A stretch of 61,305 nucleotides of DNA from Eledone cirrhosa (taxonomy: Eukaryota): NCBI GenBank assembly GCA_964016885.1, contig CAXHJY010000380.1:1-61305 (forward strand). Reading direction: 5' to 3'. The notes under the pieces were generated by a model. It saw nothing but the letters and a program-made list of their open reading frames with translations, had not been told where the DNA came from and searched no databases. Below, piece after piece: positions 44,624-61,305 of the stretch. The position numbers and the translations under genes were made by a program. Within the stretch, counting starts at the first letter, position 1; each line of letters begins with the position of its first letter.

Positions 44624-44668
44624 ATTTCCCTGATGAGTCCTTAATAGGACGAAACATTGTCGGCTAAT
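44624..44668 (+). ncRNA. Minimal type I hammerhead ribozyme (mirror copy)
   Basis: Same motif; stem I carries a G>T change (ATTTCC). Confidence 0.8.
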
Positions 44669-44811: not shown

Positions 44812-45177
<366 letters not shown>

Positions 45178-45199
45178 TATATATATATATATATATATA

Positions 45200-45445
45200 A
45201 TAGCTTTCACTGTACTTTTCCACTAAAGAAATTTTAGTCTGATAATGGAGTTTAGAAGCCTCAGATAAATGGGAAAAGATGAGTATTGACGTACATGTAC
45301 GTCAATACTCATCTTTTCCCATTTATCTGAGGCTTCTAAACCCCATTATCAGACTAAAATTTCTTCAGCTTTCACAGTACTTTTCAACTATTCTATTTTC
45401 TAATTGCAAGCCTGCTCACTGTTTCAAAACATACTTACTTGTCAT
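45200..45445 (+). mobile_element. Second fold-back copy of the 17451 tRNA-headed family
   Basis: GTACGTCAATACTCATCTTTTCCCATTT...AAACCCCATTATCAG...GTTTCAAAACATACTTAC aligns with 17546-17687. Inverted about 45295; (TA)n on both sides. Confidence 0.75.
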
Positions 45446-45464
45446 ATATATATATACTTACTTG

Positions 45465-45507
<43 letters not shown>

Positions 45508-45509
<2 letters not shown>

Positions 45510-45600
45510 AAAATGTTTAACCCCGACGGCAGAGCTCAAGTCGTTTCGATAGCTATTTATGGACAGAAATAGTCGTCGAAACGGCTTCAGCTCTGCCGTC
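45508..45600. mobile_element. Small fold-back copy of the 24968 family
   Basis: GACGGCAGAGCT...AGCTCTGCCGTC. Confidence 0.7.
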
Positions 45601-45829: not shown

Positions 45830-47338
45830 AATTATATACATGCCAATGTCGTGGTGAACTAAAAAGATGACACGGAAATATATAAAGAATTATCTTTCTT
45901 TGCCAGAACCGACCATGGCTGCAGGCCCTCTTTCTAACAGACTAGATACTTTCTTGTCGCTTCTCTCTTCCGCCATTTCTTATATCATTTAACACCAGAA
46001 GTAGAAGCATGGCTAAATTTACTTAACTTCTCATCTATTCATTGAAAATACATTTTTATGAATAGTTTTATTTTTAATTTCAAAATTTACAATATGTCTG
46101 CACTTATGCAACACACGCACGCACGCGGACAGACAGACCTACCATGGGTGCCACATAAAGGGGCCGCCACTTGGACTAGGAGCATGTTCTATTAAAGTCA
46201 AATATGCCTCGTTAATATGCCAAATATGCCATCCTTCAGATGTATGACCTGTCGCTGATTATCAGGGGTGAGAAGACTATGGTGGCTGGATCATTAAACC
46301 ATTATATAAATTATTATTGGTGCTCTGAAATAAAACATACAGTATATTATTAAATATACAATACGTACATGCATTTATATAAATTATTAGGCTCATAGGT
46401 AAAAATACAGTGCTTGGGCAGGGGTGCAATTTTACTGCTTGCCATAGGGGCTATTTTCCCTAGATATGCCTCTGCACACATACGTACGCATAATTTCAAA
46501 AAAGCAAATTGTAAGAGTTACAATATCCAGGCATTAACGTTACAAATTAAGTGAAATATCTCCAATCAAAACCGGGAATCGAATTCGGTTCCTCAGTAGC
46601 TAATCTTATTCCATTTTCAATGAAGTACACTTTTCCTTTCTAAATCATACCAATCTTTCACAAAAAAAAGGGAAACGTCTCGCTGTTCTGTTATGGATTT
46701 TTTTCTCGGGCATTCACCCCCACTAAAACACCCACATTTCTGAATAAATACTGCGCCCGATTTCGAGTTGTTTGTCTGAGAAGAAAAAAAAAGATTGTTT
46801 TTTACACCATTATTAAAGTTATTTACCAGCGTCAGTAGAAAATAAGAAATAAGAACCCCCCCCCCCCCCCCCCAAAAAAAAAATACAAGAGATTTAGGTC
46901 GGTTAACGAGGCGAGTGAAATCCAACCTTAAAACACGGTTAGACAAAGTAAACCAATAACACAAGTCCTGCTTTAATATCTGTCACTTAAAACGATAATC
47001 TTCCATTTACTGGTCGTCTTACTAAAAGAAAACCAGATGTTACTCATTTCTCATCTTATGTCATAAGATCTCGGGATAGCTTCCTTTCTTCCAGTTCCAA
47101 TAACTGTTAACTCACATTTTCCTGTCTTTCTCTACGTCACTAATGTTTACAAATGATTGACCGATTTAAACCAAAACTATTCAAGCAGACACTATACTGT
47201 AAACATGATCTACATACTTATAAACATTCACGTACTTAAGCATACCGCGCACGCACCACACACACGACACCACACACACCACACACACCACACACACCAC
47301 ACACCACACCACACCACACCACACCACACCACACCACA

Positions 47339-47507: not shown

Positions 47508-47551
<44 letters not shown>

Positions 47552-47556
<5 letters not shown>

Positions 47557-50500
47557 GAAGAGAGAAGAAACATTTAGATATAATTAGTAATAAAATGTAT
47601 CATACCTAAACTGTTCCTAAATTCCTCGACTACGTAGTTTCGTGGCATGAAGTTGGCACCCTTAACTCACAGTTGGGTGCGGATGCATTCATGTATATAT
47701 GTGTGTGTCCGCATGTATCTGTGTGTTTCTAAATATATTAATAACTCCCTCTGGTCGAGCAATCTTTGAAGTGTGGGGACAACTGGAAAGCTTCCATTAC
47801 TCATACTTCTCGCCTTCTTCACTACCTCTTCTACGGCCTCGATATGAATACCCCCTCCGCCTCCGTGGTATTTTCTTCGTGGTTATAAGAGGCTTAGCTC
47901 TGTTTCTCGACCGTTATATCGCGTGACTGTCTCCCCCTCCGCCTTTTGGGATTCTTTCTCACGTCGTGTAGACGCGTTCTTGAGACTAGTAAAATGAGGT
48001 ATCCTCTTGATAAGTCGGCAGACCTCGCAAGGACTCTATATCTTTGATATATTGTTTTTGTTTATGCCACGAAACTACGTAGTCGAGGAATTTAGGAACA
48101 GTTTAGGTATGATACATTTTATTACTAATTATATCTAAATGTTTCTTCTCTCTTCATAATGTATTTTTAACTCTGATACTGGTTCAGTCTGGTTCAAACT
48201 GAATTGGTCTGTCCCAGTCATTCATTGAGCAACATCGGTGAAGTTGGCACCCTTAACTCACAGTTGGGTGCGGATGCATTCATGTATATATGTGTGTGTC
48301 CGCATGTATCTGTGTGTTTCTAAATATATTAATAACTCCCTCTGGTCGAGCAATCTTTGAAGTGTGGGGACAACTGGAAAGCTTCCATTACTCATACTTC
48401 TCGCCTTCTTCACTACCTCTTCTACGGCCTCGATATGAATACCCCCTCCGCCTCCGTGGTATTTTCTTCGTGGTTATAAGAGGCTTAGCTCTGTTTCTCG
48501 ACCGTTATATCGCGTGACTGTCTCCCCCTCCGCCTTTTGGGATTCTTTCTCACGTCGTGTAGACGCGTTCTTGAGACTAGTAAAATGAGGTATCCTCTTG
48601 ATAAGTCGGCAGACCTCGCAAGGACTCTATATCTTTGATATATTGTTTTTGTTTATGCCACGAAACTACGTAGTCGAGGAATTTAGGAACAGTTTAGGTA
48701 TGATACATTTTATTACTAATTATATCTAAATGTTTCTTCTCTCTTCATAATGTATTTTTAACTCTGATACTGGTTCAGTCTGGTTCAAACTGAATTGGTC
48801 TGTCCCAGTCATTCATTGAGCAACATCGGTGAAGTTGGCACCCTTAACTCACAGTTGGGTGCGGATGCATTCATGTATATATGTGTGTGTCCGCATGTAT
48901 CTGTGTGTTTCTAAATATATTAATAACTCCCTCTGGTCGAGCAATCTTTGAAGTGTGGGGACAACTGGAAAGCTTCCATTACTCATACTTCTCGCCTTCT
49001 TCACTACCTCTTCTACGGCCTCGATATGAATACCCCCTCCGCCTCCGTGGTATTTTCTTCGTGGTTATAAGAGGCTTAGCTCTGTTTCTCGACCGTTATA
49101 TCGCGTGACTGTCTCCCCCTCCGCCTTTTGGGATTCTTTCTCACGTCGTGTAGACGCGTTCTTGAGACTAGTAAAATGAGGTATCCTCTTGATAAGTCGG
49201 CAGACCTCGCAAGGACTCTATATCTTTGATATATTGTTTTTGTTTATGCCACGAAACTACGTAGTCGAGGAATTTAGGAACAGTTTAGGTATGATACATT
49301 TTATTACTAATTATATCTAAATGTTTCTTCTCTCTTCATAATGTATTTTTAACTCTGATACTGGTTCAGTCTGGTTCAAACTGAATTGGTCTGTCCCAGT
49401 CATTCATTGAGCAACATCGGTGAAGTTGGCACCCTTAACTCACAGTTGGGTGCGGATGCATTCATGTATATATGTGTGTGTCCGCATGTATCTGTGTGTT
49501 TCTAAATATATTAATAACTCCCTCTGGTCGAGCAATCTTTGAAGTGTGGGGACAACTGGAAAGCTTCCATTACTCATACTTCTCGCCTTCTTCACTACCT
49601 CTTCTACGGCCTCGATATGAATACCCCCTCCGCCTCCGTGGTATTTTCTTCGTGGTTATAAGAGGCTTAGCTCTGTTTCTCGACCGTTATATCGCGTGAC
49701 TGTCTCCCCCTCCGCCTTTTGGGATTCTTTCTCACGTCGTGTAGACGCGTTCTTGAGACTAGTAAAATGAGGTATCCTCTTGATAAGTCGGCAGACCTCG
49801 CAAGGACTCTATATCTTTGATATATTGTTTTTGTTTATGCCACGAAACTACGTAGTCGAGGAATTTAGGAACAGTTTAGGTATGATACATTTTATTACTA
49901 ATTATATCTAAATGTTTCTTCTCTCTTCATAATGTATTTTTAACTCTGATACTGGTTCAGTCTGGTTCAAACTGAATTGGTCTGTCCCAGTCATTCATTG
50001 AGCAACATCGGTGAAGTTGGCACCCTTAACTCACAGTTGGGTGCGGATGCATTCATGTATATATGTGTGTGTCCGCATGTATCTGTGTGTTTCTAAATAT
50101 ATTAATAACTCCCTCTGGTCGAGCAATCTTTGAAGTGTGGGGACAACTGGAAAGCTTCCATTACTCATACTTCTCGCCTTCTTCACTACCTCTTCTACGG
50201 CCTCGATATGAATACCCCCTCCGCCTCCGTGGTATTTTCTTCGTGGTTATAAGAGGCTTAGCTCTGTTTCTCGACCGTTATATCGCGTGACTGTCTCCCC
50301 CTCCGCCTTTTGGGATTCTTTCTCACGTCGTGTAGACGCGTTCTTGAGACTAGTAAAATGAGGTATCCTCTTGATAAGTCGGCAGACCTCGCAAGGACTC
50401 TATATCTTTGATATATTGTTTTTGTTTATGCCACGAAACTACGTAGTCGAGGAATTTAGGAACAGTTTAGGTATGATACATTTTATTACTAATTATATCT

Positions 50501-50684
50501 AAATGTTTCTTCTCTCTTCATAATGTATTTTTAACTCTGATACTGGTTCAGTCTGGTTCAAACTGAATTGGTCTGTCCCAGTCATTCATTGAGCAACATC
50601 GGTGAAGTTGGCACCCTTAACTCACAGTTGGGTGCGGATGCATTCATGTATATATGTGTGTGTCCGCATGTATCTGTGTGTTTC

Positions 50685-50693
<9 letters not shown>
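47552..50693 (+). mobile_element. Candidate retrozyme: 591-bp unit x about 5.15 with an inverted 5' segment, inserted in (TA)n
   Basis: Period 591 (47649 to 48240, etc.); units look identical. 47552-47648 is the reverse complement of 48064-48160. One HHR per unit; (TA)n on both flanks. Confidence 0.85.
48002..48089 (+). ncRNA. Type I hammerhead, U3-A8 variant (copies also at 48593, 49184, 49775, 50366)
   Basis: TCCTC-TTGATAA-GT(C)GGCA-[44-nt insert]-TGCCAC-GAAACTACGTAGTC-GAGGA; GUC cleavage after 48084. Confidence 0.75.
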
Positions 50694-50747
<54 letters not shown>

Positions 50748-50984
50748 TTGTGAATATATATATATTTATATATATATATAGTTTAGCGAGGTTTTTTATA
50801 TGAAATCGTGTGTCGAAACAGATATTGTTATACTTGGGGAGGGTCATATTTGCGTAATATTGCCAGAATTAATAACAGAACACACTCACTGTTTGGTTGG
50901 TTTTCGCTTCTCGCTGTCTTTTATATCTGCGATCTAACTTACTCGGTCCTCAATGTTGCCATTGACTGACCGACGGTCAAAAAT

Positions 50985-51042
50985 AATTGTTTCTACTTTT
51001 GGCACAAGGCCAGCAATTATCCCAGTGTATTACTGGTACTTT
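50985..51042 (-). mobile_element. SINE 3' fragment inserted into one pLTR
   Basis: Present here, absent from the 52440-52770 copy. Confidence 0.85.
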
Positions 51043-51397
51043 ACACAAACACATATATATAGTTTACATAATTTACATAAATCTTTCTTTGCACATCTGC
51101 AACATCGTCAGTGGTGTTATATTCTTTGTTCCTCCTGTTGTGTTGTATGTCTACGCCATTGTTTATTCAGTCTGTCTATATATTTATTTATTTATTTGCT
51201 TGTCTGTTTATCTTATTTTATTTTGTCTTCTTTGCGCATGCGTTTGCGTGTGTGAATAGTGTTATGTGTGCTGTGTGACTAGTGTGTATAGTGTTGTGTC
51301 TGCTGGGTGACTAGTGTGTGTTTATGTGCTTGTTGTTATTGTGCTTGTGTATGTATTTATTTATCTTATTTTATTTTATTTTATTTTATTTACTTAT

Positions 51398-52435
51398 TTA
51401 TACTTCTCTTAGGTCAGTGTTGTTTGTTTGGGTGTTGTTGTTGTTCCACTCATTCTTTCTGTTTAGCTTTGGTCTTCTAATTTCTATTTCACTGGCCTCT
51501 CTGATTTGCCTATCTGCTGGGTCATTCCTATGTTTAGATATTATTCTAATTTCTATGTTGTCTATGTTACCGTCATGTTGTTGTCTAGCATGTTCGTATA
51601 GTACTGACCCGTTTTTTCGTCCTTTTAGTTCCCCCCAGTGTTGGTCTATCCTTTCACCTATGCTACGAGCTGTCTCACCTATGTATGTTGTTGTCATGTT
51701 TCTGCAAGTACCCTCTGTACATCTTATGCTATAGACTACGTTTCTAGTTTTACAGTTTATCCGGGGGTTCACCTTACATATGATACATTTCCTATTGGTA
51801 CAGTGGGTTTTCTTAAAAGGGTAGGTTTTGCTGATCAGGGATTTTATGGTGGTTCCTGGCTTTTTTACCACCTTTATTTTTAAGTGGGTCTTTCTCAGGG
51901 CCTTTCTACACTGGTTAGCTAATTTCCCTCCAGGGGTGGCGTCCACAAACATGACACTCTGATATCTCTGGTTGTCGTACCATGATGTGGCCTTCCTTAT
52001 CTTATGTCTAGCCCTATCTAAGCTATTCCATGATTTGCTCCTGTATAGTGGGCAAATTCCTTTCATGTCCAGTTCTATGAGGGTCTTATACTTTTCCATG
52101 GCTCCTTCGTATACTCTGACTCTGTCTCTTTGGTTGTAGCCAGAGAACTGCATGCGGTTGATGAAGTGTTGGATGTGTCTTTCCATTTCTGTTGGGTCGC
52201 ACATGCTGGACACATTCTTCATCACTCGTACCAAATCTGCGATCAGAATATTAAACTTAGCACTACTGGACATTGCTGAGTTTTTGAGTATCAGGTATTG
52301 GGAGGCCATGGGTTTAGCATAGTGTGAGTGGAGAATTTGGGCTCTCTCGTCTATAGTGTTAATCCAGAGTTCTGTGTCTAATACCGGTAGTCTATTGTTA
52401 GGGTGTTTGGAAGGGAAGTCGATAGTTACAGTTAT
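51398..52435 (-). CDS. PLE polyprotein C-terminus: RT thumb, C-x4-C-x2-C linker, GIY-YIG endonuclease (5'-truncated)
   Basis: LPVLD, YAKPMAS, SAM, FSGY, CTNRKCIIC, NVVYSIRC..C....YIGETARSIGERIDQH, H...H, RQIREA..I...PKLN; about 345 uninterrupted codons. The ORF's first ~29 aa come from the inverted pLTR. Confidence 0.9.
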   Translation of the reverse strand: MTVTIDFPSKHPNNRLPVLDTELWINTIDERAQILHSHYAKPMASQYLILKNSAMSSSAKFNILIADLVRVMKNVSSMCDPTEMERHIQHFINRMQFSGYNQRDRVRVYEGAMEKYKTLIELDMKGICPLYRSKSWNSLDRARHKIRKATSWYDNQRYQSVMFVDATPGGKLANQCRKALRKTHLKIKVVKKPGTTIKSLISKTYPFKKTHCTNRKCIICKVNPRINCKTRNVVYSIRCTEGTCRNMTTTYIGETARSIGERIDQHWGELKGRKNGSVLYEHARQQHDGNIDNIEIRIISKHRNDPADRQIREASEIEIRRPKLNRKNEWNNNNTQTNNTDLREV

Positions 52436-52763
52436 AAATAAAAAAATAAATATATAGACAGACTGAATAAAAAATGGCGTAGACATACAACACAACAGGA
52501 GGAACAAATAATATAACACCACTGACGATGTTGCAGATGTGCAACGAAAGATTTATGTAAATTATGTAAACTATATATATGTGTTTGTGTCTGTATTGTA
52601 TCTGTATTATTTTTGACCGTCGGTCAGTCAATGGCAACATTGAGGACCGAGTAAGTTAGATCGCAGATATAAAAGACAGCGAGAAGCGAAAACCAACCAA
52701 ACAGTGAGTGTGTTCTGTTATTAATTCTGGCAATATTACGCAAATATGACCCTCCCCAAGTAT

Positions 52764-52814
<51 letters not shown>

Positions 52815-53204: not shown

Positions 53205-53393
53205 ACGAAGGAGTTGTGGTAAGGAACCAGATGGACCATAACGCACCAGCGTATTCAATACTTAGGGTAGTAGAGTGGGTGATAGGAAAATGTTTAACCG
53301 CGACGGCAGAGCTCAAGCTGTTTCGACGGCTATTTCTAGTCCAGAAATAGCCGTCGAAACGGCTTGAGCTCTGCCGTCGGGGTTAAACATTTT

Positions 53394-53398
<5 letters not shown>
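53205..53398 (-). mobile_element. Fold-back copy of the 24968 family in (TA)n
   Basis: Arms about 53283-53338/53343-53398. Confidence 0.8.
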
Positions 53399-59741: not shown

Positions 59742-61305
59742 TAACTTTGAATAACTTTGAAATGTTTTGGCCAGTATTGGCCCAGGCCATGTCTAACTTA
59801 ATAGCACCACCTGGCGAAGTCTTTCAATTCAGGATTTGGGCACCATGGCCCATTCGAGAAGAGAATTACTGTTTGCGGAGACATATCCGGGTGTGGGTGG
59901 TTTGTCCGGGATTACTTGGAGGAATTTGTCCAAAGACTTCTTGAATTTTGTGTGGTCAGTTTCTGTTTTGACGTGTCCTGGTGTGATGTTGAAGAGAGCA
60001 GGGCCGATTGAGGTGAAATAATTGTGCCGTATTGTTGTTATGAGTTGCGATTTAGATTTTTGAATAGGACGGATAGCACGGGGCCCAAGCCTTGGGTGTA
60101 TCTTGAAGGCGATGCCAACATCATTTGGGCAGTGATGATGGAACATTTTCCACATCATGCAGATAATATAACGCTCAAGGCGACGTTGGAGTGAGTAAAG
60201 TTTCAGGTTTTCTAATCGACCCCAGTAGTCAAGGTCTGACATGCCATCTATCTTTTTCGTGATTGCCCTTTGAGGAGCTTCAAGTTTCATGATACTTTGT
60301 TTCGTGTGGGGAGACCACAGTGGACAACAGTATTCAAGGTGTGGTCGGGCAAAAGTAGAGAAGAGAAGGATAATGGTGCGGGAATCTCTCGACTGGAAGG
60401 TTCTGAGGATCCAGGAACACATTCTGCGGGCCATGTCAACTTTGCTGCTTATATGCGTGGTCCAGCTTATGTTTCTGTCCACGGTTACTCCCAAGTCTCT
60501 GATGTTGTTAGATGCCACGAGAGTTTCCCCGGAGGGAAGGGAGTACGGGAGTTTCAGAGCATCCTCTTTTCCAAAGTGGATCAGTTCGAATTTGTCTTCG
60601 TTCAGTAACATGTTGTTCTTTTCCGCCATTGGGTAACAGCCAGTAGGTCTGACTGAAGGCTTATCCGGTCATCCACGCCATTGATGACCTTTTGGAGCTT
60701 GGAATCATCAGCGAAAATTTTAATGTTGCTGTGTTTGATGATGTCATTAATATAGATGATGAAGAGAAGTGGGCCCAACACAGTGCCTTGTGGGACCCCA
60801 CTACTGACTTTGGCTGGGCTTGATTTGACTCCCTCAACTACAACATGTTGGGTTCTGTTTGACAGGAAGCTCTTGATCCACTGCAGCAGCTTTCCAGTGA
60901 CACCAATATTGGACAGCTTTCTCAGTAGAATGTTATGATCAACCCTGTCAAAGGCCTTGCTGAAATCAAGGTAGATAACATCAGTGTTGGAACCCTCTCC
61001 CAAGGCTCTCAAAATGTCATCAAAGTGATGCAGTAGCTGCGTCAGGCAATCCCTTCCATTACAGAATCCATGCTGGTTGGAGTTCAGCATATTGTTACTC
61101 TCAAGGAAGTGGGTCATTCGCGATCTCACCACTCTCTCAAGTACCTTAATGATATGAGAGGTGAGTGAGATTGGACGGTAATTCACGGCAAGGGATTTGT
61201 TTCCCTTTTTGAAAACTGGGACAACAGATTGGGATAGAAGGTTTTCTGGCACATATCCAGCATCCAGTGAGTTCCGCCACAGATTGGCAAGAGGAGATGC
61301 AAGTT
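59742..61305 (-). mobile_element. CR1-group LINE, ORF2 reverse transcriptase with one frameshift (about 60627), runs off the window
   Basis: VVPVFKKG..NYRPISLTS, QHGF, YLDFSKAFDRV, GVPQGTVLGPLLF, FADD in 60602-61252; RDLGV, RPHLEYC..LWSP, LYSLQRR in 59829-60629; short 3' UTR ending in a 10-bp repeat. Confidence 0.93.

Follow-up and report, generated by a model that had tools for sequence, protein, structure and literature searches.

A 591-nt hammerhead retrozyme family of Eledone cirrhosa with two fixed, Penelope-like insertion ends

A tandem array with an inverted arm

The window analyzed here is a 61,305-nucleotide (nt) stretch of Eledone cirrhosa DNA (assembly GCA_964016885.1, contig CAXHJY010000380.1, positions 1 to 61,305). 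At 47552-50693, it carries a tandem array of 591-nt units, and this array is one insertion of a dispersed retrozyme family that lacks long terminal repeats (non-LTR retrozyme). Self-comparison of the window gave an exact 591-nt period over 47648-50693 (3,046 nt, 5.154 units, 0 mismatches). We numbered the unit from 48085, the first base 3' of the predicted hammerhead cut; in this numbering, the 3,046-nt arm (plus strand) runs from unit position 155 to position 245, which is referred to as site B below. The 97 nt at 47552-47648 match the reverse complement of 48064-48160 exactly. This inverted arm (minus strand) consists of unit positions 571-591 followed by 1-76, spans the hammerhead cut site, and has its 3' end at a second position, site A. 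The two arms meet head to head at 47648 with a 1-nt exact overlap.

Runs of (AT)n border the array on the left (47510-47553), where AT letters are common to the run and the start of the inverted arm, and on the right (50688-50780), where the run is also common to a neighboring insertion. A target-site duplication was unreadable within these (TA)n tracts. The left flank (46900-47240) was single-copy in the assembly, and no empty site for this copy was found in the assembly. The unit has a GC content of 0.418, and its longest stop-free frame is 86 codons, so we rejected a coding role. The open reading frame (ORF) with reverse transcriptase (RT) and GIY-YIG domains that marks an autonomous Penelope-like element (PLE) was likewise absent from the unit. 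A preliminary description of the window had listed about 5.15 identical, non-coding 591-bp units in a non-integer number, a 97-bp inverted copy at the 5' end, (TA)n on both flanks, and one hammerhead per unit cut after 48084, and all of these features were found again here, the cut as a prediction.

The hammerhead and the fold of the unit

In a descriptor scan, all five full units had one type I hammerhead each. The first lies at 48002-48089 (plus strand), the others follow at +591, +1182, +1773, and +2364, and the inverted arm holds the 3' half only (47623-47641, minus strand). Each hammerhead has a 5-bp stem I, a U3-A8 core that replaces C3/G8, a 57-nt stem II region, and a stem III whose strands and loop make up a 10-nt palindrome. 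An Rfam search did not detect the array hammerhead, either at the gathering score or with a cutoff of E ≤ 10; its U3-A8 core and long (57-nt) stem II region are the probable reason. Weak Rfam matches to microRNAs were discarded as generic hairpin likeness. According to parts of two earlier reports, the U3-A8 covariation is natural and active in hammerheads (PMC3088659), and the minimal hammerheads of PLEs combine U3-A8, a short helix I, a long helix II, and a palindromic loop that permits dimeric folding (PMC4209133).

Folding energies put the active hammerhead 1.1 kcal/mol above the local minimum (-21.5 versus -22.6). The hammerhead region alone was not better folded than shuffles (z = -0.7); the whole monomer folded far better (z = -5.3, 0 of 100 shuffles). 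In the predicted monomer fold, the hairpin that follows (48085-48155, plus strand; directly 5' of site A) takes up the 3' strand of stem I at its base. With this re-pairing, cleavage would be possible while the RNA is transcribed, and the product would then be protected. Hence, refolding of the monomer is predicted to silence the ribozyme once it is cut.

The core, stem I, and stem III were nearly invariant in subfamilies that are 74 to 83% identical elsewhere, and the hammerhead appears to be selected for function. Covariation in the region between sites A and B was modest among 14 related sequences (double changes in 4 of 67 pairs, with one-sided changes in most others), and it weakly backs conservation of the hairpins. 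From the conserved motif, we infer that the unit RNA cleaves itself.

A dispersed family with two fixed ends

An exact 22-mer from the hammerhead had 7,502 matches in the 3.0-Gb assembly, and a control word had none. The first 100 matches fell into 50 loci, which by rough extrapolation gives a few thousand family loci. We examined 148 loci in three sets: the 40 loci closest to the window unit (the window included), 49 further loci taken in position order from contig C1, and 59 loci chosen by variant words, a set that is biased to B ends and from which one duplicate stretch was removed. The family is multicopy, has no LTR, and has a GC content below 50%; by its testable features and in how it works, the element is a non-LTR retrozyme. 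Chromosome-scale contigs carried multi-unit arms at many unlinked positions, and these arms had fixed outer ends and single differences scattered along them. The prediction of dispersed young arrays with variable, non-integer copy number in (TA)n targets was borne out, whereas the single common 3' end that had been expected gave way to two alternative ends.

These outer ends lie at unit positions 76-82 (site A; 48160-48166 on the plus strand, recurring every 591 nt) or 245-247 (site B; 48329-48331), and they are some bases off in a few older copies. The window insertion used the copy of site B at 50693. Each site is AU-rich and lies 3' of a hairpin, which for B is a long one (48254-48331 on the plus strand, site included). 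Site B is predicted to be single-stranded and site A to be partly paired. Both ends join (AT)n through shared AT letters, and the two sites are 165 nt apart. The fixed A and B ends, with the spacing as the "tail," are the signature of Penelope-like insertions, and the inverted, 5'-truncated copy and the microsatellite target are further PLE-type features. Because neither A nor B is the ribozyme cut site, reverse transcription must start within the monomer and can continue only by reading across the cut junction.

Of 69 one-armed loci, 32 ended at A, 36 at B, and 1 elsewhere. Their 5' sides were variable truncations that adjoined (AT)n in 32 of 42 loci checked. Two-armed loci behaved differently from what independent end choice would give: 74 of 79 paired one A with one B, none paired A with A or B with B, and five were exceptions (L065, L109, L125, L127, and L200). 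We set down the A+B rule as a prediction before the third set was scored, and it held in 31 of 32 loci there, compared with 21 of 22 in the closest set and 22 of 25 in the position-ordered set. Under independent 50:50 choice, the first 42 A+B loci alone have P = 2e-13. These counts take L038 as A on its exact end at 82 (the classifier had called it "other," with an end at 85 by BLAST extension), include the older insertion at L107, and count the duplicated L113 once. Arms ranged from 34 to 6,553 nt, and either arm could be the long one. By eye, diverged subfamilies paired their ends alike (L090, L091, L097, and L098). The inverted piece is therefore a second arm that has its own fixed start site, A, and is joined to (TA)n, instead of the typical PLE 5' inversion for which it had been taken. 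The best explanation of the window copy is 97 nt copied from site A plus 5.15 rounds copied from site B.

These data also bear on whether the arrays arose at insertion. The window array had 0 differences in 3,143 nt compared with 71 non-fixed differences in 58,199 base calls of its closest sister arrays (P of about 0.02); it is somewhat cleaner than its sisters, which points to a very recent insertion or to smoothing of its units during assembly. One could propose that the five identical units are an assembly artefact, since the window is a 61-kb unplaced contig whose units lack differences, or that monomers and dimers retrotranspose and the arrays grow later by unequal crossover or slippage. 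Local amplification is the favored model in the available part of bioRxiv 10.64898/2026.07.22.740005, and adjacent units with common non-fixed variants occurred in five arrays. We consider this proposal very improbable because of the multi-unit arms with fixed outer ends at unlinked loci noted above, because 30 of 47 position-ordered loci already reached at least one unit length, and because it leaves unexplained both the A+B pairing and the variants fixed in both orientations.

The 591-nt unit was also found, at 80 to 93% of words, in sequencing runs labelled as three different organisms, and loose (AT)n ends lay exactly at sites A and B in one of those runs. Single assembled contigs of one unit plus 30 nt (621 and 620 nt) in two sequencing runs have the form that a closed assembly cycle takes; they were considered as evidence of an RNA circle and rejected, since a tandem repeat sequenced as DNA at low depth would look no different.

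The template of the two arms

In the position-ordered set, the arms of one locus differed at 0.51% of positions (32/6,223) versus 3.6% between loci (4,760/132,361). In the closest set, the values were 0.15% and 0.33%. These comparisons strongly indicate that both arms of a locus were copied from the same template. The variant C444T had 13 matches in the genome, all of them in L052, where every unit of both arms carries it (B arm, 11 of 11; A arm, 2 of 2). The variant C429A was present in 4 of 4 units of L047 and in one other place. Non-private variants (A351G, A132G, and G122A) were mostly fixed per array. A351G (19 copies at about 10 loci) and A132G (77 copies) had been candidates for private variants and were rejected.

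Further results concern how the arms relate to the ring that a closed monomer would form. No indel was present within 3 nt of the cut site in 237 crossings, where the background rate (159 of 16,850 windows) predicts about 2; the clean crossings thus give no sign of template jumps, which is a weak indication. In 22 of 42 A+B loci, each arm extended past the start site of the other, which requires strand displacement on a shared template. Modulo 591, the arm tips of 19 of 70 clean loci were at most 35 nt apart (P = 5e-4). The coincident tips were spread over six registers of the unit (from -2 to +3), as they would be if what mattered were position on the ring. Tip coincidence was a post hoc observation in the earlier sets, and the third set bore it out (12 of 31 loci). 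An excess of tips about 160 nt apart (13 of 43, also post hoc) was dropped when it reappeared in only 2 of 31 fresh loci.

Priming of both DNA ends on one RNA, at A and at B, is very likely. A ring with one A and one B would account at once for the shared haplotypes, the fixed variants, the clean crossings, the overlaps, and the tips, and we consider it probable from these genomic signs that the template was a monomeric RNA circle. The preliminary description had proposed a single-event insertion with a PLE signature, which agrees with the fixed ends and with arms of one haplotype, and reverse transcription around a circle, which gains support from the fixation of C444T in both arms and from tip coincidence.

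Alternatively, one end might be target primed and the second arm might be a fold-back (self-primed) copy of the first cDNA, or a copy of an antisense template, that, after trimming, was connected to (TA)n at the other site. Palindromic joints, perfect or nearly so, were enriched (4 of 70 within 2 nt), two variants common to both arms (described below) would fit the copying of one arm from the other, and part of PMC3846280 proposes self-priming for head-to-head PLE structures. Such an origin would give no reason for the missing A+A and B+B pairs; short arms frequently run through a site of the kind used by the first arm and stop at the other kind (L174, L175, L196, and L197). In addition, neither arm was a sub-interval of the other in 15 of 43 A+B loci, non-fixed variants common to both arms in the tip register numbered 0 of 39, and A and B each serve alone as ends of one-armed copies. 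Fold-back copying therefore seems a poor candidate for the second arm, and we give it little credence.

Several points count against a monomeric circle moved by a PLE. The indel-free junction is weak evidence alone and fits uncleaved multimers equally well. Two single-unit variants were present in both arms in the same outer register (T439C in L056 and T381C in L198; 2 of 36 testable), and since a monomeric circle cannot template these, a multimeric template or later gene conversion between the inverted arms is needed there. Other variants occurred in two or three, though not all, units of an arm (L050, L052, L127, L192, and L210), so local duplication or conversion after insertion also occurs. 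L200 joins two different haplotypes head to head, and its right arm stops short of B. Because the assembly is of a single haplotype, the source of a seemingly "private" variant may lie outside it. The F1 family (a PLE family described below), 12 related loci, 20 other hammerhead loci, and 108 RT proteins yielded no autonomous PLE that resembles the 591-nt unit in sequence, the best result being one match to the RT proteins at E = 0.009; one of many PLE families was covered in full, and a parent may exist among the others. Among published results, 8 of 9 Xenopus retrozyme dimers were uncleaved in vitro in the part of bioRxiv 10.64898/2026.07.22.740005 available to us, and hammerhead cleavage was dispensable for an anole PLE in vitro, with unprocessed RNA as its main substrate (PMC11167929).

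Some of these points would suit a template of uncleaved multimeric RNA, whether read through from a tandem locus or made as a multimer from RNA, on which a dimeric PLE protein bound to the hairpins of one unit fixes one A and one B. A bound dimer would enforce A+B on linear RNA too, so that the pairing and the clean junctions are explained equally well. The anole PLE, which used mainly unprocessed RNA, is also predicted to be a dimer, and the single-unit variants common to both arms fell in the same outer register (2 of 36), with 0 of 35 and 0 of 39 in other registers. A multimer would nonetheless need a homogeneous source for each haplotype, and the assembly holds none for C444T. Typical arrays have about 1.2 non-fixed differences per kb, which should have passed on in register far more often than the ratio of 2 shared to 34 unshared, and the tips coincide over six registers instead of one. 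We regard a multimeric template as unlikely on balance and retain the monomeric circle as the probable template.

L200 may have drawn on two RNAs during a single event, or it may have been altered afterward by an insertion or a rearrangement. Two unrelated arrays of different haplotype (L050 and L192) both had G192A in a pair of neighboring middle units, and T209C was observed in three non-adjacent units of L052.

A candidate source of the enzyme

The retrozyme is very probably moved by a PLE. Directly to the right of the array and its shared (TA)n lies a separate insertion (50781-52771, minus strand), a 5'-truncated, two-armed copy of a PLE family that we call F1; its ORF remnant (51398-52552) has RT thumb and GIY-YIG motifs. 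Among 40,949 first-look PLE candidates, F1 is a young family with at least 120 copies, 98 to 100% protein identity, and frames of up to about 1,217 amino acids. The F1 unit is about 4.1 kb, inserts in (TA)n, and reads across its own unit junction. Its ends, A' and B', are 43 or 58 nt apart and were paired as A'+B' in 13 of 13 insertions with both ends seen; two further insertions extended beyond the stretch examined and were not counted.

By eye, the 1,218-amino-acid F1 frame has what we take to be RT motifs, a CX4CxxC linker, a GIY-YIG domain, and a long asparagine-rich insert. Pfam and PDB searches with the F1 protein gave no match, and among its homologues, RT and GIY-YIG families were annotated in a few entries only. 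The nearest database protein was an Octopus vulgaris annotation (72% identity). F1 is a candidate endonuclease-bearing (EN+) PLE, possibly of the Neptune/Nematis type, which has an RT, a C-terminal GIY-YIG, and a CX2-5CxxC linker; the tandem and inverted structure of F1 and its tail fit this type, and the motifs seen by eye would fit as well. No ribozyme family was found in the F1 junction region, and no direct chimera of the 591-nt unit and F1 was found among 89 loci. It is plausible that F1 supplies the enzyme, and we propose this tentatively.

In L154 (1605-3660), a piece of an F1-like ORF (91% amino acid identity) was joined, without (TA)n and via a short inverted stretch, to a copy of another hammerhead family. 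Switching between a PLE mRNA and a retrozyme RNA as templates may have produced this joint, as may an insertion accompanied by a deletion.

Proposed mechanism and comparison with known systems

We propose, as the probable mechanism, that the element is a non-autonomous retroelement of the non-LTR retrozyme type, moved by a (TA)n-targeting PLE enzyme via two-site priming on a monomeric circle. A tandem copy would be transcribed, and the hammerheads would cut the transcript into 591-nt monomers, as is established for other retrozymes. A host ligase would close the monomer, the stem I strand would refold into the first hairpin, and the ribozyme would stay off. The PLE endonuclease would then cut both strands in (TA)n, the target observed here and a reaction with an in vitro precedent in another PLE. 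Each DNA end would anneal through a few AT letters to A or B on the same RNA, never both to one kind, and each RT would circle the ring by strand displacement for 0.05 to 11 rounds. Finally, a head-to-head joint would form between the two cDNA tips, in most cases through microhomology of a few letters, and priming of a single DNA end would leave a one-armed copy; both of these structures were observed.

It is conceivable, though we would not yet lean toward it, that the PLE tail and inverted copy are in general the footprint of a two-ended mechanism, in which one ribonucleoprotein bridges the double-strand break, both ends prime at two dedicated sites on one circular RNA, and two RTs follow each other around it by strand displacement. 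The 4.1-kb F1 family would then follow it too, given its A+B rule and its junction read-through without a detectable hammerhead. PLE transposition would be a rolling-circle, twin-primed process on circular RNA, and the insertions would be the first insertion-level proof of animal retrozyme circles as a transposition intermediate.

In L1 twin priming, both DNA ends prime on one RNA, which yields a head-to-head inversion; one primer sits at the poly(A) end, and the second sits at a variable internal site near the end of the first cDNA. In contrast, both sites here are fixed and internal, either can act alone, and the arms overlap by several unit lengths.

PLEs are the sister group of telomerase RTs, and the mobilization of retrozymes by PLEs has so far rested on co-occurrence and on likeness to the pLTR (pseudo-LTR) of PLEs, from which the available part of bioRxiv 10.64898/2026.07.22.740005 argues a PLE origin. 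The copying of circles into tandem cDNA by a PLE or a long interspersed nuclear element (LINE) was already proposed in part of PMC7229834, which gives retrozyme sizes of "150 to >1000 nt." Metazoan units of 51 to 972 bp are listed in the consulted part of the bioRxiv paper, so the unit lies within the published range, and the earlier impression of an unusually large unit was dropped. Thus, the class, the size, and the circle model are not new here. In both sources, as far as covered, metazoan non-LTR retrozymes resemble this family in having tandem non-coding units with one type I hammerhead each, a GC content below 50% (41.8% here), no LTR, thousands of dispersed copies, a well-folded monomer, and co-occurring PLEs. 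The unit is larger than the 170- to 400-nt circles reported there for invertebrates, the circle here being an inference, and its hammerhead is of the PLE minimal type with U3-A8, not canonical. The sections covered mention neither strict (TA)n targeting nor two fixed start sites or two-armed insertions.

The element also differs from EN+ PLEs as described in parts of PMC8557442, PMC3846280, and PMC11167929, in that it has no ORF, its tail is 165 nt versus 30 to 40 bp, and its arms reach 11 tandem units. The one-end asymmetry of the tail, qualitative in these known PLEs, is a counted rule here (74 to 0). The anole PLE has two RT start sites that bound the tail, both strands are cut and extended, and the protein is a predicted dimer (PMC11167929); its start sites were reported as non-homologous to the cut DNA, whereas the ends here have AT microhomology to the target. 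According to part of PMC8557442, MRC1 and other non-autonomous Chlamys elements have 3' ends similar to those of their autonomous partner, and most have no hammerhead. Unlike them, the 591-nt unit has a hammerhead, and no sequence parent was found for it in the set compared above. The origin of tandem and inverted PLE insertions and of the tail is stated as open in parts of PMC8557442 and PMC11167929. We found no retrozyme with PLE tail ends, no counted A+B rule, and no insertion-level evidence of a monomeric template in the literature searched, which left most subscription papers, older Penelope work, and supplements outside.

The interest of the window array lies less in the array itself than in the mechanism that its family makes testable. 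This family is young and has thousands of copies, and in them the reaction is directly recorded: two fixed start sites, strictly one of each used, and a single haplotype in each insertion. At only 591 nt, the RNA could be made as a monomer, a circle, and a dimer, and an intact candidate enzyme is present in the same genome.

Other hammerhead families and repeats

Other hammerhead families with U3-A8 were observed genome-wide (4,479 pattern matches versus 28 for the control). Among them were 316-nt tandem arrays (L160, L161, and L170) with ends about 130 nt past the cut site that adjoined (TA)n. In L152 and L169, one arm ended there and the inverted arm read on, as if a tail rule applied.

In the window, Rfam identified a canonical type I hammerhead at 44624-44668 (plus strand; 35.3 bits), which a long (TA)n follows some 150 nt downstream, at 44815; this is probably the 3' end of another PLE-type element. 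Short, near-perfect palindromes between (TA)n runs (44986-45103, 45226-45359, 45505-45600, and 53282-53395) resemble very short two-armed insertions of other families. Weak hammerhead-like descriptor matches were present on the minus strand at 25178-25236 and 25387-25445, and the first has a look-alike in an inverted pair in L091. By eye, 14970-15150 and 59829-60668 (both minus strand) resemble the ends of non-LTR retrotransposon ORFs, the second without a Pfam match. Three identical 207-nt units at 21338-21958, which have no hammerhead by the descriptor, may be another young tandem insertion.

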